Positions 129 to 32,215 of a stretch of DNA of 42,742 bases are shown piece by piece. The stretch is from Candidatus Moanibacter sp. (GTDB taxonomy: Bacteria > Verrucomicrobiota > Verrucomicrobiia > Opitutales > UBA2987): the NCBI GenBank assembly GCA_965215885.1, contig CBDCEW010000074.1, forward strand, positions 1-42,742, written 5' to 3'. The notes below the pieces were generated by a model. It was given only the letters and a program-made list of their open reading frames with translations, did not search any database and was not told the origin of the DNA. A program made the position numbers and the translations under genes. The number at the start of each line of letters is the position of its first letter. The stretch's first letter is position 1.

Positions 129-293
129 GAATGAGGTGTGTATACGCATGAGAGTTCAATGTCCACTCTCACAACCCGAAAGTGCGAACTTTGCAGACCT
201 CTCTACCGCCGAGGTCTCCCGAGTGACGAAGACGGGCAACCCACGGCGGCTCCGCCGACCCACTGTTCCTTGCGGTGATAATTCACTCCTGAA

Positions 294-357
294 GTAGGAG
301 AGGCTTTAAGCCTCGATCCGTACCACCATGATCATCGCGAGGTAAACTCGCTCCTAC
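294..357. repeat. GTAG-type REP pair (REPIN-like)
   Basis: gtaggagaggctttaagcctcgat ... atcgcgaggtaaactcgctcctac: two inverted GTAGGAG-headed imperfect palindromes. Confidence 0.7.
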
Positions 358-487
358 ATCCCTCTCGGGTATTCGAGCTGCATCTTCGAGTCCGCCCAAG
401 GTTTAAAATGGACGAAGTCTTATACATTTTTAAGAAATGTTAAATAATAATCTATTATCAAATAGTGTTTAACCCGGGAGATCGCGG

Positions 488-515
488 TTGACAGTAAGGA
501 AGTGGGAATTAACCT
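488..515 (+). promoter_or_regulatory. Putative sigma70 promoter for the metG leader
   Basis: TTGACA (488-493), 16-nt spacer, TAACCT (510-515), with AT-rich sequence upstream. Confidence 0.55.
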
Positions 516-548
516 GTATGTTTCTATAGACAGGAAAGAACCTGAGAA

Positions 549-626
549 ATGAATCTGTATCACAGCAGTTTGATGATGCGACTTCGCCGGTTAATTGTCG
601 GTGAAGGCATGCGAATGCGCAGGTAA
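549..626 (+). CDS. Met-rich leader peptide MNLYHSSLMMRLRRLIVGEGMRMRR
   Basis: 25-codon ORF with 5 ATG codons (positions 1, 9, 10, 21, 23), purine-rich AGGAAAG upstream, located between the promoter and terminator ahead of metG. Confidence 0.7.
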   Translation: MNLYHSSLMMRLRRLIVGEGMRMRR

Positions 627-655
627 AAGAAGCCCGAATCGGTAGACAATTTTCC

Positions 656-693
656 GGCCCAAGAGAACAAATGCTCTTGGGCCTTTTTATTTT
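656..693 (+). terminator. Intrinsic terminator (attenuator) in the metG leader
   Basis: Perfect 10-bp stem ggcccaagag/ctcttgggcc with an 8-nt loop, followed by tttttatttt, 30 nt before the metG ATG. Confidence 0.85.
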
Positions 694-723
694 CCGAAAT
701 CCAACATCCACTCAGATTTTCGC

Positions 724-2175
724 ATGAAGAAACAGATCTATATCACCACAACAGTTCCCTACGTAAACGCGAAGCCCCACATCGGGTTCGCTCTGGAGCT
801 TCTAGAGGCAGATGCCCTGAATCGCTACTACAAGCAATGCGGATACGCATCTTTCCTCCAGACAGGCACCGACGACAATGCTCTTAAGAACGTCAAGGCT
901 GCGAAGGAGGAGGGCGTGACACCCTCGGAATGGGTCGACCGCAACGCGGCTGCCTTCCGACAGTTAGCGGACATCCTCTCGATCGAATACGACTCCTTCA
1001 TTCGAACTACGGAAGATCGGCACAAGAGAGCGGTGCGGTCGTTCTGGAATCGGCTCTCTCCGGATGATCTGTACAAAAAGCCGTACCGAGGCTTATATTG
1101 TATCGGTTGCGAGGACTTTTATACGGAGAAAGACCTCGAGGATGAACTCTGCCCGGAACACGGGACGCCCGTTACCACGGTTGAAGAGGAGAATTACTTC
1201 TTTCGGCTGTCGCGCTACGAAAAGGAACTTCACACGCTTATCAGCCAGGATCGAATCCGAATTTTACCACATAAAAGAAAGAAGGAAGTTCTCACGTTCA
1301 TTGAAAGCGGACTGCATGATTTCAGTGTATCCCGTTTAGCATCTCGTGCGGATGGCTGGGGGATCCCCGTTCCCGGAGATTCACGTCAGGTCGTATACGT
1401 ATGGGTCGATGCACTCATCAACTACCTGTCAGGGATCGGTTTTGGCAACGGCGATGACTGGAAGAAGCTCTGGAACGAGAAGACGAGGAAGATACACGTC
1501 CTGGGGAAGAACGTTTGGAAATTTCACGCTATATACTGGCCGGCAATGCTTCTCTCCGCACGTATCAGTCTTCCGGATGAGCTTCTGATTCACGGATTTC
1601 TTACCGTAGAAGGAAAGAAAATAGGCAAGAGTCTCGGCAACGCAATTGATCCTATTGCCAGTTTAAATGTACTTGGTTTAGATGCTGTCCGATATTTCCT
1701 GTTGAAAGGCATACCTCCATCTGGCGACAGTGACTTTGCGAAAGCACGTGTAATTCAACTATATAACGCCGACCTCGCAAACGGCCTCGGAAACCTCGTC
1801 AGCAGATTGGCCCGCCTCGCTGAGAAGAGTAGTTACACTCCTCCAAACACTCAAAGGAAGGAGGTATTAGATTTACCTCAACCTTATCATGAAGCCTTTA
1901 TTCGCTTTGGGATCGATGAGGCAGCAGAGGCAGCCATCGATGAGGTGAGAGCTCTCAATCGCGAGGTGGATCGAGTCGAGCCGTGGAAACTATTGAAGTC
2001 CGGCCAGTTTCAAATTCTTCACGGTTTTCTCAGGGAGTGGTTCGAGCGCATTGTAATAGTGACGGAAGAGCTGAAACCGATAATCCCGCAGACCGGCCAA
2101 TTCGTAAATCAGAAACTATCAGACCCATCGTCTCTGGACGGTATCCGTCTCTTTCCGCGGAAGTTTTTAGCGTGA
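724..2175 (+). CDS. metG: Methionine--tRNA ligase, short form without the C-terminal tRNA-binding appendix
   Basis: PYVNAKPHIG (HIGH region), TGTDD, CxxC...CPEH zinc knuckle, WGIPVP, YVWVDAL, FHAIYWPA, KIGKSLGN (KMSKS variant), LANGLGNLVSR. Confidence 0.95.
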   Translation: MKKQIYITTTVPYVNAKPHIGFALELLEADALNRYYKQCGYASFLQTGTDDNALKNVKAAKEEGVTPSEWVDRNAAAFRQLADILSIEYDSFIRTTEDRHKRAVRSFWNRLSPDDLYKKPYRGLYCIGCEDFYTEKDLEDELCPEHGTPVTTVEEENYFFRLSRYEKELHTLISQDRIRILPHKRKKEVLTFIESGLHDFSVSRLASRADGWGIPVPGDSRQVVYVWVDALINYLSGIGFGNGDDWKKLWNEKTRKIHVLGKNVWKFHAIYWPAMLLSARISLPDELLIHGFLTVEGKKIGKSLGNAIDPIASLNVLGLDAVRYFLLKGIPPSGDSDFAKARVIQLYNADLANGLGNLVSRLARLAEKSSYTPPNTQRKEVLDLPQPYHEAFIRFGIDEAAEAAIDEVRALNREVDRVEPWKLLKSGQFQILHGFLREWFERIVIVTEELKPIIPQTGQFVNQKLSDPSSLDGIRLFPRKFLA

Positions 2176-2187
2176 TCCCGCTGAGCG

Positions 2188-3795
2188 CATACGCGTAAAC
2201 CTTATTTTCGCAACTTAGTCAGATTCAAAGACTTGCGAGGTATTTTGCGGCGGAGTATGAGGGTGTCTCTATCCTCGAGGTTCCACTCCATTTGTTCGCC
2301 CTTTTCTATTTGCTTCGTTTCGACCACAGCGGTGAGGAAATTCGCAGTTGAGCGAGTGCATTTTGGCCGGGTTATCTTCTCTACTTTTACCGTCTACCCC
2401 ATTTTTTTTCACTTTGGCAGCATTTTATACTGTACATTCGTTCATATATAGGATTTATCCTTCGGATGCAAAGTATAAAAAAAGCTGATTGTATCCGTCA
2501 AACCTTCCGTAAGTTGAACCTCACAGCCCTCGCTAAACAGAGTGGTTTTAGAGAGAGGAAATCGCGCAAGATCTCCCCTCTGAACTTTGTTTTGGCTTTG
2601 CTGGCGATGGCTTCTAAGGGGGCCTTGTCCCTTGGCAAAGAAGCCGAGCTTATTGGATTCTTAGCCAACCGCACCATTTCCAGACAAGCGGTCCAAAAGT
2701 GCGCCAAAAAAGCCACCGCTTTTATGACCTTAGTGCTCCTGAGGCTTTTAGAACTTAAAGCTTATGGGCCTGTGGGCAGAGCTGTTCCAAATTGCATGAG
2801 GAGCTTTGAACGGGTTCTCATTGCCGACAGCACTTCGATTGGCTTGCCTAAGGTCCCTGGCCCCCTTCTTCCCCGGAGCGTCCAATCAGACAGGCTCCAA
2901 ACAGGCTCAACTGAAGATTCAGGCCTATTACGATCTGCGCAATGAATCCTTCGTTGACTTCAGCCTCAGTAGCTTCCGAAAAAACGATCAGGCTGCTTCC
3001 AAAGACATTCTCGCTCTCGCTCAACCCAACGACTTGATCCTGCGCGACTTAGGCTATTTTGTCCTCGATGTCTTTAAGCAACTCGATCAGCGCGGCTGCT
3101 TCTTTGTGAGTCGTTTGAAAACCGGCACTTGCCTTTTAGCCAACGAAGGCGATGAAGAGCTCGATCTACGCAAACTTTTACGTGGCCAAAAGCTTCTCGA
3201 TATGCCCGTTCGGGTGGGTAAAAAAGCCAAGCTTCCGGTTCGTCTGATCGCCGTCAAACTCCCTCAGAAGGTGGCCCATAAACGCCGCCGCGAGCATAGA
3301 CAAAACCGCGACAATAGACTTCGATATACCAGCCGCACCAGCTTCCTTCTCGGTTTCCAAATCTTTATTACCAACCTCCATCAGAAAGACTTTAGCCCTA
3401 AGCAGATTCTGAGCTTTTACGGGCTTCGCTGGCGCATCGAAATTTTCTTTAAGGCCTTTAAGCAACATCTTAATCTCGGTCAGGTCAAAGAGACTACTCC
3501 CTACCAGATTGAGCTTCTTATCTACGCCCGTCCTCATCCTCATTACCCACTTACTCAACTTCGTCTATGGTCCCCTTAGACACTATTCGAATACCAGTTT
3601 GTCCTCTCCTCTGAGTATCCTTAAATTCTCCTACTGGTTTGGCTTCTTTGCTCCCTACTTCTTCATCCTCTCTCACCTTCCCAAAGATCAGATCATCCCC
3701 CGATGGCTCAAACAAATCCCCAAACACTGCACCTATGAAAAGCGTTCTCGTCTTGATTTCCTCTCTTGTTTCTTCTCCTTAGGTTAACGCAAATG
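2188..3795 (+). mobile_element. IS4-family insertion sequence (1608 bp)
   Basis: Imperfect terminal IRs catacgcgtaaacct / aggttaacgcaaatg; 9-bp direct repeat CGCTGAGCG at 2179-2187 and 3796-3804. Confidence 0.9.
2466..3787 (+). pseudogene. IS4-family transposase with two +1 frameshifts (~2852, ~3528)
   Basis: IADSTSI, RDLGYF and Y..RWRIEIFFK (YREK) motifs are spread over ORFs 2466-2945, 2806-3579 and 3509-3787. Confidence 0.85.
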
Positions 3796-3968
3796 CGCTG
3801 AGCGGGACGCCTTAATTCGATCTTTCGAGAAAGGGGTAAAATAGTCACTCAAAACAGTAAGAAAGGTGATAGGATTTCCGGGCTTGTATTTTTTCAAACT
3901 CCCAACATTCTTGCCGCCTTCAATCGATCCAGATTTCATATCTTGATCTGGAGGAATTCAGTGAAATC

Positions 3969-5693
3969 ATGAGAGACCACCTTATTCAACCGCATGGAGA
4001 ATCCCTGGTAGACTTGATCGTCTCGCCGGAGGAAACCGAAGAACTAAGAGCGAGTTCCAAGAACTGGCCATCCTGGGATTTGACAGCCCGCCAGCTCTGC
4101 GACCTTGAGCTGCTTCTGAACGGTGGATTCTCACCCCTTAAAGGTTTCATGTGCCGCTCCGACTACGAGTCCGTCGTGTCATCGATGCACCTGTCGGATG
4201 AAACACTTTGGCCGATCCCAGTCGTCCTCGATCTGCCGGATGCATTTGCTAAGGAGCTCTCTGCAAACGAAACCATCGCCCTGCGTGACCAGGAAGGGGT
4301 AATGCTGGCCGCACTGCGCATTGAAGATATCTGGAAGCCGGATCGTATCGTCGAAGCGGCCGAAGTCTACCAAACGACCGATCCTACACATCCAGGTGTA
4401 CAATATCTCACTCGCGAGACAAACCCATGTTACGTCGGAGGAACGGTCCTGGGAATTCAGTTGCCTGCACACTACGACTCAGGATCACACCGCTTCACGC
4501 CTGCCAGACTGCGGCGTGAATTCGGTCGCCTGGGATGGCGCAAAATCATCGCTTTTCAGACACGAAATCCAATGCACCGGGCGCATTTCGAACTGACCAT
4601 GCGCGCGATTCGAGAGCATCAAGCCAATCTCCTGATTCATCCTGTCGTCGGATTAACGAAACCGGGCGACGTGGACCATTACACGAGAGTTCGCTGTTAT
4701 GAGGCGCTCCTCCCACACTACCCTCTCAACTCCGTGAAGCTGGCCCTGCTTCCCCTATCGATGCGGCTGGCTGGACCCCGTTCCGCTGTCTGGCACGCAT
4801 TAATCCGGAAGAATTACGGCTGTACTCATCTCATCGTCGGGCGCGACCATGCGGGGCCGGGAAAGGATGCCAAAGGCAACGACTTTTACGGTCCTTACGA
4901 CGCGCAGGAACTCCTTCAGCAACTGGAACCTGAAACCGAAATCGGGATGGTCCCCTTTTCCCAGCTCAACTATGTGGAAGAAAGGAATGCCTACCTTTCA
5001 ACGAATGAAATTGAGCCGGAAATGCGCACTCTGAGCATTTCTGGAACAGAGCTGCGAATCCGCCTCTCCGAAGGCAGGGACCTGCCAAAATGGTTCACTT
5101 TCCCTGAGGTGGCCACGGAATTGCGTCGCAGCTATCCGCCCCGCTACCAACAGGGCTTCACCGTATTCTTTACCGGGCTCTCCGGTTCGGGAAAGTCCAC
5201 CATCGCCAATGTCCTCATGAGTAAGCTGCTGGAAATCGGAGGAAGACCGGTTACCCTGCTCGACGGTGATATTGTTCGAAAGAATCTATCCTCTGAGCTC
5301 GGCTTCTCCCGTGAACACCGAGATTTGAATATCCGTCGCATCGGATTCGTCGCGAATGAAATCACTAAAAACGGAGGAATTGCTATCTGTGCGCCCATCG
5401 CCCCCTACGATTCCGTTCGCGAAGACGTCTGTTCACTGATTAAAAAGCATGGCGGATTCATTCTTGTCCACAACTCTACTCCATTAGACGTTTGCGAATC
5501 CCGTGACCGAAAGGGCCTTTACGCAAAAGCTCGCGCAGGAATAATCAAAGAGTTTACGGGGATCTCAGATCCCTACGAGGAACCAGCCAACGCCGACCTC
5601 AGAATCGATACCTCCAACCTCACACCGGAGGAGGCCTGCCAAGCGGTTCTCCTCCACCTCGAACGCGAAGGCTACGTTTCCGGAAAGCCGTAA
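3969..5693 (+). CDS. sat: Bifunctional sulfate adenylyltransferase / adenylylsulfate kinase (Sat-CysC)
   Basis: FQTRNPMHRAH and VGRDHAG (ATP sulfurylase); C-terminal GLSGSGKST, LLDGD, FTGISDPYE (APS kinase). Confidence 0.96.
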   Translation: MRDHLIQPHGESLVDLIVSPEETEELRASSKNWPSWDLTARQLCDLELLLNGGFSPLKGFMCRSDYESVVSSMHLSDETLWPIPVVLDLPDAFAKELSANETIALRDQEGVMLAALRIEDIWKPDRIVEAAEVYQTTDPTHPGVQYLTRETNPCYVGGTVLGIQLPAHYDSGSHRFTPARLRREFGRLGWRKIIAFQTRNPMHRAHFELTMRAIREHQANLLIHPVVGLTKPGDVDHYTRVRCYEALLPHYPLNSVKLALLPLSMRLAGPRSAVWHALIRKNYGCTHLIVGRDHAGPGKDAKGNDFYGPYDAQELLQQLEPETEIGMVPFSQLNYVEERNAYLSTNEIEPEMRTLSISGTELRIRLSEGRDLPKWFTFPEVATELRRSYPPRYQQGFTVFFTGLSGSGKSTIANVLMSKLLEIGGRPVTLLDGDIVRKNLSSELGFSREHRDLNIRRIGFVANEITKNGGIAICAPIAPYDSVREDVCSLIKKHGGFILVHNSTPLDVCESRDRKGLYAKARAGIIKEFTGISDPYEEPANADLRIDTSNLTPEEACQAVLLHLEREGYVSGKP

Positions 5694-6234: not shown

Positions 6235-7419
6235 TCAGGCTTCAGCCTCGGGGAAATCCGGATAAATCTCGACCAATTCTCCAATCCCGATTTTGACATC
6301 ATCTCCATAGGCAGCGATCTCGTCGTTCTTAAACACCCGCACGTTGGCCGCTTCACCAGCATTCTCTACCGTCCACTCCCACTTTCCGATCTCTAGAAAG
6401 CTCATTGGAACACCCTCTGTCCAATTTAATCCCGGGCCCTCTCCGCGAACATAAGGAGTGTTGCCTAGACCGATGTTCGTATGCGCAATCAAAGTAAGCG
6501 AAGCCGGGTCAGCGGAGGGACCTTTTGAGGGCTCGGGCGAGCCTTGTGCAGGCACCGGCGCAGGTATCTCTTCTTCTTCAAATTCGACATCCGGATTCTC
6601 CACGACGACTTCGGTAGTATTATCTTCCACCGCCTCCGGATCGATTTCAGGCGGTTCAGACCACAGTCCCGCTTGCTCATGAACTGGTTCAGATTTCTCC
6701 CTTTCTGGTTGCTTCTTCCCTTCTATCTTTACCGCTTTCTTCGATTCGCCCAAATCAGGAGTCGGCCGCTCTCCTGAAGAGGCAGTTTCATCTTTGGGAG
6801 TCCCTTCACCTAAGGAGTCCAGAAGGACATCTAGTTTTTCTCCGAGCCGCTCCAGTCCCGAATCAGAATCCTGCGACGCAGACCGGGCCTTATCAAAAAG
6901 ATCCTCCACCTCTTCCCGCACTTCCTTTAGTTGCGAAGAGAAACTCTCCAACTCTTTCGTCTGCGCCTCGCGAAGCGTCTTGAGATTCTCAGATAACTCA
7001 CTCTTTTGCTCCTTTACGGATTTCTCCACAGCGCTTTCCAGGTCAGCGATCTTCTCGTGCAATACAGGACCGATCTCCTTAAGTTGCTCAGCTGAAGAAG
7101 CCGACTTTTGTGCGAGTTCGGAAAGAGTACGTGTGACAGTCTGCAACTCGTCGATTACGTTTCGTGTCTGCTTAGCCTGTTCGTCCACACTTTCCTGAAA
7201 AAGGCTGTTAGCAACCTGAAGACGCGAAAAATACTCCACAATGAACGGAGCAGCAAAAAAGAGAACTGCCAGAACACCACTCAAAATTATCGATGACGCG
7301 GCAATCGCATCGTATGGTTTCGAAGAGAAGACCGCCAGGAGAATAGCCAATCCGACAAAAAACAGGTCACCCAATAGGAACGGCCACTTCGGAAGTCTAG
7401 GGTATGACTGGTTGTTCAT
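6235..7419 (-). CDS. Membrane-anchored coiled-coil hypothetical protein with a small C-terminal beta domain
   Basis: Two N-terminal TM segments, a coiled-coil, an acidic linker and C-terminal IGLGNTPYVRGEGPGLNWTEG. Confidence 0.8.
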   Translation of the reverse strand: MNNQSYPRLPKWPFLLGDLFFVGLAILLAVFSSKPYDAIAASSIILSGVLAVLFFAAPFIVEYFSRLQVANSLFQESVDEQAKQTRNVIDELQTVTRTLSELAQKSASSAEQLKEIGPVLHEKIADLESAVEKSVKEQKSELSENLKTLREAQTKELESFSSQLKEVREEVEDLFDKARSASQDSDSGLERLGEKLDVLLDSLGEGTPKDETASSGERPTPDLGESKKAVKIEGKKQPEREKSEPVHEQAGLWSEPPEIDPEAVEDNTTEVVVENPDVEFEEEEIPAPVPAQGSPEPSKGPSADPASLTLIAHTNIGLGNTPYVRGEGPGLNWTEGVPMSFLEIGKWEWTVENAGEAANVRVFKNDEIAAYGDDVKIGIGELVEIYPDFPEAEA

Positions 7420-7536: not shown

Positions 7537-8544
7537 CTAAACTGTGCGCCTTTCCAGAAAGCCTACCTTTCGGTAGACCTTACGCAACATTGCATCGGCC
7601 CGCATCTGCGCGGCTTCCGCTCCATCGGTCAACACAGAGGTAAGCGCATCCTTATCCTGCACAAGGGCGTTGTATCTATTTTGAATGGGCTCCAGCAGAG
7701 CAACTACCGATTCCGCCACCGCACTTTTGAATTCGGCATAACCCACCCCAGCGAAGCTTGATTCGAGTTGATCAATTGAGCGTCCGGTCACGCCACTCAT
7801 GATAGAGAGCAGATTCGTTATTCCCGGCTTCCCCTCATCCGCCCTGATCTCCCTGTCACTATCTGTGACTGAGCTCATGATTTTCTTGCGAATGGCACCA
7901 GGCGGATCCTGCAGGAAAATTGTCGCGTTCCGATTTTCGTCAGATTTTGACATTTTTTTGGTAGGCTCCTGAAGCGACATAACCCTTCCCGCCACTTTCG
8001 GAATATAAGGCTCGGGCAGAGTAAAAGTATCAGAATAAGTGCGATTGAACTTCTCGGCGATGTCTCGCGTAAGCTCCATATGCTGCTTTTGATCGCCGCC
8101 AACAGGTACCACATCAGCGTTATAGAGCAGTATGTCGGCCGCCATAAGAACAGGGTAGTAAAGAAGCCCCGAACCGACTGTTGCACCAATACGAGCCGAA
8201 CGGTCTCGAAACTGCGTCATCCGCTGCAATTGCCCGACCGGCGTGAGGCAACCGAGGATCCAGGCCAATTCCGTATGCCCGATCACATGAGATTGGAGAA
8301 ATATTCGGGATTTCTCTGGGTCGAGCCCACAGGCAATATAACCGGCTACACATTCCAAAGCGCCTCTTCTCAATTCCGACGGCACAGTGCTTACCGTAAT
8401 GGCATGGAAATCGACTATGGGGAAGAAGCACTCGTAATCATCCAGCATCTCCGTCCAGTGCTTGATCGCACCGAGGTAATTACCCAGGTGCAGCTGACCA
8501 GAAGGTTGGACGGCGGTAAGTATGACAGGCTTTTTCCGGCTCAT
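7537..8544 (-). CDS. trpS: Tryptophan--tRNA ligase
   Basis: QPSGQLHLGNYLGA, YPVLMAADILLY, VPVGGDQKQH, KMSKS. Confidence 0.97.
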   Translation of the reverse strand: MSRKKPVILTAVQPSGQLHLGNYLGAIKHWTEMLDDYECFFPIVDFHAITVSTVPSELRRGALECVAGYIACGLDPEKSRIFLQSHVIGHTELAWILGCLTPVGQLQRMTQFRDRSARIGATVGSGLLYYPVLMAADILLYNADVVPVGGDQKQHMELTRDIAEKFNRTYSDTFTLPEPYIPKVAGRVMSLQEPTKKMSKSDENRNATIFLQDPPGAIRKKIMSSVTDSDREIRADEGKPGITNLLSIMSGVTGRSIDQLESSFAGVGYAEFKSAVAESVVALLEPIQNRYNALVQDKDALTSVLTDGAEAAQMRADAMLRKVYRKVGFLERRTV

Positions 8545-30736: not shown

Positions 30737-32215
30737 ATGAACACACAAGATTCCGAACCACTCACGACCGTCCGTAAAGCCCTCACCATAAACTTCGATT
30801 CTTCGAAGTATGGCACCTTCGCTGAGATTGGAGCGGGTCAGGAAGTCGCGCGCCAGTTCTTTCAAGTGGGAGGAGCAGCCGGCACAATCGCGAAGAGCAT
30901 GTCCGCCTACGATATGACATTCAGCAACGAGATCTACGGAAAGGCCAGACGCTACGTCTCAAAAGAGAGACTCCTCTCAATTCTCGATCACGAGTATGAA
31001 CTCCTCAAGGACCGGCTTTGGGATTCGCGAGCAGAAAGGTCTCAGTTTTTTGTATTCGGCAATTCTGTCTCCGCGCGGAACTACAAGGGAACAAATGAAT
31101 GCCACGGTTGGATGGGAATCCGAGTCCAGCTGACACCACAGGCCGACCCTGATGACTGCTACCTGCACGTGCGGATGCTCGATCACTCCAATCAACTGCA
31201 ACAGGAGGCTCTAGGGATCATTGGTGTTAACTTGATATACGGCGCCTTTTATTATTTCGAAGACGCCGATAAACTCCTCGAGTCCCTCGCTGATAGTGTT
31301 GGGGCGGAACGGATCGAAATCGATATGATTGAATGCCACGGACCCAATTCCAAAGGCATCGACAACCGCCTTTTAAGCCTGAACCTTGTCACCCTGGGTT
31401 ATACGAATGCAGTAATGTTTGGGAGAAATCGCACCGTCCTCCAACCTGCTGAAGCCCTTTACAAGAAAGCCCTCCTTGTGGAGCGCGGCAGCTTTCGTCC
31501 GGTCTCCCACGTTAACATCGATATGCTACAGTGCGCCCGGGTGCAGTTCCTGCAGGATCAGAGAGTCAAAAGCAATAGGGTGCGCGTCCTTTTGGAGATT
31601 ACTATGAGGAATCTCCTTACCCATGGAGAAGGGAGCATCGATCGAGCGGATCTCCTGGCCCGGATCGACGTCATTACCGCTTTGGGATACACCGTGCTCA
31701 TTTCCAACTACTTTCGATACTATCGCCTCAGCGAATATCTACGCCAGTATACCCACGCCCCAATCGGGTTGGTCATGGGCATTAATCACGTTTTGGAAAT
31801 TTTCAATGAGTCCTACTACTCCGATCTTTCGGGAGGAATTCTGGAGGCAATGGGGAGGCTCTTTAAGGATAACATCCGGCTCTACGTCTATCCTATGACT
31901 GGGAAGGCATTCAGGAGGCATCTGGCCGAGCGTGGTGCTTCGACTAATGATGCCGGTAGGGTTTTCACATCGAAAGGCATTATCACGGACAAGAATCTTC
32001 AGGTTCCGCCTCATTTGAGGAACCTCTACGCTTACCTCCGCGAAAACCACTATCTGGAAAGCGTGACCGGGTACAATCGAAAGGTTATGGGAATCTTTTC
32101 ACGCGATTGCGTGAGACTTATTTCCGAGGGAGACCCGAATTGGGAAGAAATGTTACCGGATAAAGTCGTCGCTATTGTCAAACGACGCCGCCTCTGGGGC
32201 TATAAACCCGACTAG
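30737..32215 (+). CDS. Conserved protein with a C-terminal nucleotidyltransferase-like region
   Basis: YGTFAEIGAGQEVAR, GGAAGTIAKSMSAYDM, ECHGWMG, RGSFRPV; family recognised from recall, function unknown. Confidence 0.8.
   Translation: MNTQDSEPLTTVRKALTINFDSSKYGTFAEIGAGQEVARQFFQVGGAAGTIAKSMSAYDMTFSNEIYGKARRYVSKERLLSILDHEYELLKDRLWDSRAERSQFFVFGNSVSARNYKGTNECHGWMGIRVQLTPQADPDDCYLHVRMLDHSNQLQQEALGIIGVNLIYGAFYYFEDADKLLESLADSVGAERIEIDMIECHGPNSKGIDNRLLSLNLVTLGYTNAVMFGRNRTVLQPAEALYKKALLVERGSFRPVSHVNIDMLQCARVQFLQDQRVKSNRVRVLLEITMRNLLTHGEGSIDRADLLARIDVITALGYTVLISNYFRYYRLSEYLRQYTHAPIGLVMGINHVLEIFNESYYSDLSGGILEAMGRLFKDNIRLYVYPMTGKAFRRHLAERGASTNDAGRVFTSKGIITDKNLQVPPHLRNLYAYLRENHYLESVTGYNRKVMGIFSRDCVRLISEGDPNWEEMLPDKVVAIVKRRRLWGYKPD

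Follow-up and report, generated by a model that had tools for sequence, protein, structure and literature searches.

Aminoacyl-tRNA synthetases (aaRSs) are made by the very process that they feed, so that a collapse of charging blocks synthesis of the enzyme that would repair it. Leader-peptide attenuators are found at E. coli pheST, where the leader is pheM, and also at trp, his and leu. An auxiliary aaRS may come under the same kind of control: trpS1 of Streptomyces coelicolor reportedly encodes an attenuator-controlled, indolmycin-resistant tryptophanyl-tRNA synthetase. The second methionyl-tRNA synthetase (MetRS) of Streptococcus pneumoniae and Bacillus anthracis, MetRS2, is said to give tolerance to synthetic MetRS inhibitors; neither Met depletion nor a Met-codon leader is known to have been described for it. 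Here we describe metG2, a Met-poor MetRS gene preceded by a Met-codon leader, in a 42,742-nt stretch of DNA (the window; contig CBDCEW010000074.1, positions 1 to 42,742) from Candidatus Moanibacter sp. (Verrucomicrobiota). Like MetRS2, metG2 appears to be a horizontally acquired second metG beside a native copy, and like trpS1 it is a second aaRS beside a housekeeping one, with a ribosome-mediated attenuator that would be induced on charging failure; resistance is the known role of trpS1, whereas that of metG2 is a prediction from sequence.

In the accessible portion of PMC1262725, classical attenuators are placed upstream of Streptomyces trpS and leuS and likened to that of pheST, and no RNA element is reported as found for methionine operons. 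The metG2 locus shares with such attenuators a short open reading frame (ORF) in which codons for the sensed amino acid stand in tandem, and alternative antiterminator and terminator hairpins ahead of an aaRS gene. It differs in that the codon sensed would be AUG, that the leader matches no Rfam 15 family and that metG2 itself is stripped of the sensed amino acid. This last feature recalls the cognate-bias hypothesis, by which enzymes for recovery from amino-acid starvation carry a bias against the amino acid in question; the classic case is the Trp-free tryptophan synthetase α subunit (PMC4209129). In the accessible part of that paper the bias is stated for biosynthetic enzymes and aaRSs do not figure, 'synthetase' appearing there a single time, for tryptophan synthetase; metG2 is an aaRS paralogue and its bias is near total.

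We consider it probable (roughly 0.65) that metG2 is an accessory, horizontally spread back-up MetRS, built for expression when charged elongator Met-tRNA is scarce. A back-up MetRS behind a Met-codon attenuator was the core of the original prediction for this DNA, and it is now supported by a second metG in the genome, by the low Met content of the product, by co-occurrence of such enzymes with Met-codon leaders, and by a terminator with a competing antiterminator; induction and activity are what we infer from these. Full-text literature searches, which did not reach most subscription journals and so do not prove absence, turned up neither a Met-poor MetRS nor a metG Met-codon leader.

The metG2 product and its canonical counterpart

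In a profile search the metG2 product scored above the cut-offs of TIGR00398 (381.3 bits, cut-off 336.35) and PF09334 (310.2 bits, cut-off 20.1; E = 2.3e-92). Against the full-length equivalog NF008900 it scored 458.8, below the 598 cut-off, and covered model positions 3–477 of 648. The nearest solved chains are the MetRSs of Brucella (4dlp), Aquifex aeolicus (2csx) and Thermus thermophilus (1a8h), with E values of 8e-101 to 7e-96. These short enzymes align with it almost from end to end, share its domain order and, like it, have one knuckle; in the two alignments inspected, 4dlp and 2csx have tgtdeh, gkd and Met at the KMSKS position, where metG2 differs and reads TDDN and GKN in the first two motifs.

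The candidate Met-pocket columns of metG2 (Y13, D50, W227, A230, Y234, H268) were invariant in alignments with homologues and the canonical paralogue, and align with those of the solved MetRSs; we take them to be E. coli Y15, D52, W253, A256, Y260 and H301. The candidate anticodon-binding columns N353, R361, P420 and W421 were invariant in the same alignments, and N353, R361 and W421 are presumably the Asn, Arg and Trp of the helix bundle that read CAU. Within the KMSKS motif K299, K302 and S303 are likewise invariant and just the Met and first Ser vary, while the four knuckle residues (C126, C129, C143, H146) showed no variation among MetRS homologues. In HIGF the first His and the Gly of the HIGH motif are retained and the fourth residue, His, is replaced by Phe, an exchange that may affect catalysis. 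Taken together, metG2 is a predicted MetRS that retains its Met-pocket and anticodon-binding residues. A diverged paralogue with some other substrate or role (a Met analogue, one tRNA(Met) species or a non-translational function) would fit the non-canonical class I signatures HIGF and KIGKS and the sub-threshold NF008900 score; the invariant pocket and anticodon-recognition columns, the TIGR00398 score and the fact that the same family supplies the sole MetRS of small genomes make this very improbable.

As the original prediction had counted, the initiator is accompanied by just one internal Met, at residue 275 in the sequence WPAML (residues 272–276), which gives 0.41% Met overall. The 6.36-Mb assembly has 2560 non-overlapping ORFs of 300 aa or more, whose internal Met content averages 1.93% (standard deviation 0.84%); with 0.21%, metG2 ranks tenth from the bottom. 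It is thus well below both the proteome and its paralogues, as cognate bias would have it. In its own frame the gene has two ATG triplets and in the alternative frames 14 and 3, so that avoidance concerns the Met codon and not the trinucleotide. A recount also bore out the earlier comparison with other proteins of the window, TrpS (7537–8544, minus strand; 11 Met in 335 aa) and Sat/CysC (10 Met in 574 aa). The Met scarcity of metG2 exceeds chance.

The genome also has a canonical metG (contig C98:112366–113874; 509 aa, 448.5 bits) with HLGH, KMSKS and 8 Met, so that metG2 is not the only copy. The TrpS encoded on the window contig is the sole TrpS of the genome and is 66–68% identical to the TrpS of family members, and the GC content of the contig (52.6%) is inside the range of the genome's large contigs; the contig is therefore not a contaminant. 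Within the family and order, 41 genomes were compared, this one included, and a close metG2 relative was found in just two (G000, the window's own, and G006, which holds both MetRS types; 51% identity), and the best match in the remainder, at 35–39% identity, was their canonical copy. Canonical MetRSs of the same family or order (16 sequences extracted from 18 loci) contained 8–14 Met in 16/16 cases, with a mean of 1.94%. The normal range for the lineage, within which the original prediction would have had no case, therefore lies far above the two Met of metG2.

A partial second copy lies on another contig (C60:2–565, locus L003). It comprises an identical leader and the first 103 metG2 codons, matching window positions 438–1033 save for H100Y, which hits an otherwise invariant His, and the contig ends inside the gene. 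This copy may be a true duplicate or a strain variant. Upstream of it lies a DUF4372 + DDE transposase, different from that of the window.

The leader ORF and candidate attenuator

The 25-codon leader ORF has five AUG codons including its start (the others at codons 9, 10, 21 and 23) and the sequence AGGAAAG about 10 nt upstream. ATGATG(ATG) was invariant across an alignment of 11 related leaders, and the relatives retain one AUG 2–3 codons before the stop. In actinomycetes the leader typically finishes with MMPRSRGR, and leaders of the window type read MM(M)PRAWSVAGSGIMxx.

The intrinsic terminator has a G+C-rich stem (656–683; hairpin energy −20.1 kcal/mol) and ends 30 nt before the metG2 start codon. 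Its stem covaries among relatives, with double changes in 4/9 pairs, and RNAalifold run on the related leaders recovered the terminator alone. A competing antiterminator was predicted by folding 573–663, a stretch that opens with the first tandem AUG and closes 8 nt into the terminator arm (−25.1 kcal/mol). It starts 14 nt past the first tandem AUG and would sequester the three G/C at the foot of the terminator stem (656–658). Its nine pairs, which join the segment past the Met codons to the 5′ flank of the terminator, compare with a shuffle mean of 1.23 and were matched by 2/100 shuffles. The same layout was common to 11/11 leaders (that of the window and ten from other phyla), with its base 13–15 nt past the first tandem AUG and the terminator 5′ arm as partner in every case. 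These 11 leaders gave 6–14 antiterminator pairs against shuffle means of 1.2–2.1 (100 shuffles each), and 0–12 shuffles reached the observed value, in a control that used mononucleotide shuffles, which are lenient, and leader sequences that are related. Inspection of the alignment by eye pointed to compensating differences in the paired segments; in L129 these are GGGCCUGG and CCAGGCCC, and in L139 GGGCGUGG and CCAUGCCC. The region thus has, by sequence, the parts of a leader-peptide attenuator: a Met-codon ORF, a terminator, and a competing antiterminator in a place that a ribosome halted at the Met codons would leave open.

The proposed operation is as follows. When Met-tRNA is ample, the ribosome would traverse the leader and open the antiterminator strand, so that the terminator forms and transcription halts before metG2. 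When Met-tRNA(Met) is short, the ribosome would stall with an AUG of the tandem pair in the A site; the antiterminator (586–599 with 645–658) would then form and take the base of the terminator stem, and RNA polymerase would enter metG2. The metG2 message, needing the initiator and one internal Met, could be translated while Met-rich messages stall, and the added MetRS would restore charging and close the switch. Stalling, read-through, activity and benefit are all steps that we infer from the arrangement of these elements.

The spread of the leader was surveyed at 142 loci with at least 300 nt of upstream sequence, a leader being called when an ORF with in-frame ATGATG ended 40–130 nt before the gene. 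Leaders were found at 28/39 loci whose MetRS has at most one Met, 34/53 with 2–3 Met, 17/36 with 4–6 and 0/14 with seven or more; at least one tandem-Met leader thus accompanies 79/128 loci with up to six Met. Controls gave 0/18 for upstream regions of canonical metG and 77/4000 for random windows. The co-occurrence of KISKS or KIGKS MetRSs with Met-rich leaders that the original prediction had proposed as a check therefore holds at 79 of 128 low-Met loci, in many phyla, and at none of the 18 canonical genes. Within the window's genome, a covariance model of the leader made full matches just to metG2 and the partial copy, at 84.3 bits each. The model also matched (45.3 bits) a leader at L148:895–1045 that has ATG CAG instead of ATGATG and precedes a MetRS with one Met; this may be a variant sensor.

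At gathering score, Rfam 15 gave no family in the window or at 12 related loci apart from an unrelated thiamine pyrophosphate (TPP) riboswitch, and a permissive Rfam scan of window positions 400–760 gave sub-threshold, terminator-driven matches alone. The TPP riboswitch (RF00059, 63.1 bits; L139:2712–2827) is directly downstream of a Met-poor MetRS gene on a metagenome contig.

A wider Met-starvation regulon was sought by reading through the 25 ORFs with the lowest Met content in the genome, by eye and without family searches; they looked like secreted or outer-membrane-like proteins or spurious frames, and none was recognised as belonging to a methionine pathway. The terminator half of the leader model also drew attention to another aaRS gene. 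On contig C82, around 31170–31330 of the minus strand (L211 1474–1660), a terminator-like hairpin with a U run precedes a 610-aa threonyl-tRNA synthetase-like gene, and an upstream ORF of 29 codons includes five Thr codons (..STIEGTTPLTRT..). This element may be a Thr leader attenuator. The synthetase itself is not Thr-poor (4.4% versus a genome mean of 4.8%).

The Met-poor clade and its possible origins

The homologues examined were the 120 best database matches, of about 480 aa and 48–55% identity except for two near-identical sequences at 93% and 91%. Those with named sources came from several phyla and groups, including Dehalococcoidales, Chloroflexota, Edaphobacter (with the cultured E. 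aggregans), Hydrogenedentes and Thermodesulfobacteriota. Two have no Met, 69 have one, 30 two, nine three, six four, two five, and one each six and seven, so that 71/120 contain at most one. At the KMSKS position 76 read KISKS and 35 KIGKS (111/120 together), four KMSKS and one KVGKS, the motif being undetected in four; the fourth residue of the HIGH motif is Phe in 87, His in 27 and Tyr in one, and the motif was undetected in five. The readings HIGF, TDDN, GKN, KIGKS and PIIP in the original prediction were all found in metG2, but HIGF, TD(E/D)N, GKN and KI(S/G)KS are typical of the clade as a whole and not peculiar to this gene.

The same prediction held that conserved Met had been replaced by Ile. 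This stands for the KMSKS position, where Met-poor members have Ile in 42 cases, Leu in eight and Met in two; elsewhere the replacement is mostly Leu. The PFMP column has Met in 9/28 Met-rich relatives, and Met-poor members have Leu (44), Ile (5) or Val (3) there; the WPAM column has Met in 17/28 Met-rich relatives and, in Met-poor members, Met (27), Ile (13) or Leu (8). A fourth column with Met in Met-rich relatives, at window residue 365, has Leu (28) or Met (23) in the Met-poor ones.

Species genomes, when scanned, contributed many further actinomycetes whose clade copy has 1–6 Met, among them Streptomyces, Nonomuraea, Amycolatopsis, Kribbella and Micromonospora; cultured carriers include Kribbella qitaiheensis, Longispora albida DSM 44784 and Streptomyces antnestii. 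In paired genomes (both copies were extracted in 18 of 20 attempted) the clade copy has 1–5 Met versus 8–20 in the canonical one and is the lower in 18/18 (means 0.55% versus 2.04%), which, with the homologue counts, answers the prediction's call to compare Met content across the clade. A TIGR00398 search found at least two separate MetRS places in 30/40 carrier genomes and one in the other ten; G068, one of the 40, is marked as unpublished, and nothing claimed here depends on that genome alone. The Met purge is, as judged from these sequences, a trait of a large and widespread clade.

Several observations weigh against a back-up role for metG2. Seven of the ten one-MetRS genomes are of 0.5–1.3 Mb, and the family supplies their sole enzyme, with 3–8 Met (L033, L034, L040, L041, L057, L066, L067; labelled Patescibacteria, Saccharibacteria, Aenigmatarchaeota and the like); the larger genomes G049 (10.1 Mb) and G080 (3.4 Mb) also yielded just this MetRS type. 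An independent-pairs test on the family tree, which has 15 changes of leader state and five of low-Met state, gave no association between leader and a Met count of three or fewer (median p = 1), so the leader and low Met share a few large clades and were not repeatedly gained together. The class I fourth His is missing in HIGF, and catalysis may be reduced or altered. The initiator requires Met-tRNA(fMet), and synthesis of metG2 is thus not wholly independent of MetRS. The window antiterminator overlaps the terminator stem by 3 nt and its fold energy is unexceptional (z = −0.76), which makes the window's own switch the weakest-looking of the 11. Finally, RNA-library data amount to one 157-nt contig (run X20) on 1865–2018, uninformative on start, end, level or regulation.

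Enzymes that are the sole copy are also low in Met, so that accessory copies have no monopoly on it and some of the depletion may be characteristic of the family. Relatives labelled Patescibacteria, Saccharibacteria or Aenigmatarchaeota have 3–5 Met and no tandem-AUG leader (L040, L041, L057 and L067, whose sole-copy status was confirmed, and L101 and L104, which were outside the copy-number check). In a FastTree tree of 99 rows (a quick tree with compositional warnings, of which we read the coarse picture alone) the window falls in a starred seven-row group with L010, L029, L030, L031, L032 and L035, and the actinomycete copies form a starred 50-row group. Both groups are nested among enzymes of candidate phyla radiation (CPR) bacteria and DPANN archaea, with basal members of 7–20 Met (Uhrbacteria 12, 15 and 20; Nanoarchaeota 7). 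On this picture the accessory copies were apparently transferred from a lineage of small genomes, whose Met content already varied, and then purged further.

These data bear on a second reading, in which low Met came along on transfer as a neutral or compositional feature of a MetRS lineage that CPR bacteria and DPANN archaea also possess, without any adaptive tie to a shortage of Met-tRNA. The 3–5 Met of the relatives just named and the null independent-pairs test favour it. The Met-rich basal members oppose it, as do the retention of at most one Met by 71/120 homologues at about 50% identity, the Ile, Leu or Val that Met-poor members have at the Met positions of Met-rich relatives, the two ATG of the metG2 frame as against 14 and 3 in the others, and the tandem Met codons of the leader ORFs. 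We regard it as rather improbable.

The proposed switch does not tell Met or sulfur starvation from inhibition or damage of the main MetRS, and being blind to the cause of the shortage it leaves an inhibitor-resistance role as a live and non-exclusive rival. Under this rival metG2 would be first and foremost a resistant MetRS, induced through the attenuator once the housekeeping enzyme is shut down by a compound from a competitor, much as in the case of trpS1, and its Met-poor make-up would permit synthesis meanwhile. To our knowledge there is no natural MetRS inhibitor, which counts against the idea. Residues beside the active site are altered clade-wide (HIGF, TD(E/D)N, GKN, KI(S/G)KS), the sporadic distribution (2/41 family and order genomes) points to horizontal transfer, and the gene is common in actinomycetes, as the 50-row tree group and many named Streptomyces, Nonomuraea and Amycolatopsis show; the accessible text of PMC1262725 adds the published attenuators at Streptomyces trpS and leuS. 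On the other side, tiny genomes depend on this family for their sole MetRS, and 30 flanking proteins from 15 loci included no recurring family, which leaves no sign of an operon partner or a biosynthetic cluster and indicates that adjacency to sat/cysC is not a clade feature. We judge inhibitor resistance unlikely as the main role; the neutral-trait, altered-function and oxidation-proofing explanations are weaker than it.

The last of these supposes that Met was removed to keep fidelity or activity in oxidative stress. Met is prone to oxidation, and the fidelity of mammalian MetRS shifts under oxidative stress according to the accessible part of PMC4179492. Oxidation-prone residues are nevertheless retained (4 Cys and 10 Trp in metG2, 4–12 Cys in homologues), and a Met-codon leader would sense Met-tRNA, not oxidants; the chance that this explanation is right seems slight indeed.

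On the back-up reading a wider claim can be framed, which we hold to be evenly balanced: that a mobile 'rescue' synthetase occurs across many bacterial phyla, that selection has stripped it of practically all codons for its own amino acid and set it behind a leader which senses that codon, and that it thereby escapes the autocatalytic trap in which Met-tRNA shortage blocks MetRS synthesis. If so, evolution would have met the charging trap with a synthetase that all but lacks its own amino acid and is controlled through the matching codon; cognate bias would extend from biosynthetic enzymes to the translation apparatus, methionine would join the amino acids sensed by leader-peptide attenuation, and cognate-free aaRS paralogues behind cognate-codon leaders might be a general, so far undescribed class that takes in other amino acids as well. 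The clade accounts for odd HIGF/KISKS MetRS annotations in Streptomyces, Nonomuraea, Amycolatopsis, Acidobacteria, Chloroflexota and others. A Met-free MetRS may also differ in its kinetics, for instance in having a lower Km for Met, or may tolerate inhibitors. In practical terms, the family would offer a natural Met-free MetRS scaffold and a candidate Met-tRNA-responsive genetic switch, and it urges caution over MetRS-targeted inhibitors because spare MetRS copies are widespread in environmental bacteria.

Feature coordinates and surroundings

Table 1. Features of the metG2 locus in window coordinates, with residue numbers of the product in brackets.
Feature	Position	Strand	Basis
Leader ORF, 25 codons and stop, MNLYHSSLMMRLRRLIVGEGMRMRR	549..626	+	Translation; Met-rich small ORF
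Tandem Met codons 9 and 10, proposed stall/sensing site	573..578	+	Sequence
Local hairpin CUUCGCCGG...UCGGUGAAG, 9 pairs, predicted to compete with antiterminator 5′ strand	582..606	+	Minimum-free-energy fold of 530–725
Predicted antiterminator: 586–590 (GCCGG) with 654–658 (CCGGC); 593–599 (AATTGTC) with 645–651 (GACAATT)	586..658	+	Fold of 573–663
Two more Met codons (21, 23) near leader end	609..617	+	Sequence
Predicted intrinsic terminator: 10-pair stem GGCCCAAGAG/CUCUUGGGCC, 8-nt loop, then UUUUUAUUUU U run	656..693	+	Hairpin fold
metG2, putative auxiliary MetRS, 483 aa	724..2175	+	TIGR00398 and PF09334 matches, Met count
HIGH motif, read HIGF (19–22)	778..789	+	Sequence
TDDN for TDEH (49–52), Asp50 invariant	868..879	+	Sequence, alignments
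Single zinc-knuckle-like CxxC...CPxH (C126, C129, C143, H146)	1099..1161	+	Sequence
GKNVWKFHAIYWPAML: GKN for GKD (261–263) and sole internal Met, codon 275 (nt 1546–1548)	1504..1551	+	Sequence
KMSKS motif, read KIGKS (299–303)	1618..1632	+	Sequence
PIIP (452–455) for P-F/V-M-P of canonical copies	2077..2088	+	Sequence, alignments
Insertion sequence, DDE_Tnp_1 transposase (PF01609) split in two frames (2466–2945, 2806–3579)	2179..3795	+	Context, not part of the system

The insertion sequence begins 3 nt past the metG2 stop and has terminal inverted repeats of about 24 bp. Its read depth of 178 versus 3.9 for the flanks (run X1) marks it as high-copy, and one contig from run X2, of another study, joins 2178 to 3796 without the 1617-nt element. 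It parts metG2 from sat/cysC (3969–5693); without it the gap would be about 170 nt. The window contains no tRNA genes.

A short repeat occupies window positions 269–461, where depth is about 25 versus 3.9 (bin 269–402, run X1) and several contigs break or diverge at 380–461; it sits just upstream of position 438, at which the partial copy on contig C60 begins to match. Further downstream, 6235–7419 on the minus strand encodes an acidic protein of 394 aa that is low in complexity, has a hydrophobic segment at its N terminus and likewise contains just two Met; its sole match, to the Apolipoprotein profile, is sub-threshold (20.5 bits, cut-off 90). In another genome, G064 (that of locus L052), contig C16:231–3301 carries two head-to-tail MetRS-family genes on the minus strand (231–1751 and 1862–3301), which score 471 and 430 bits to TIGR00398.

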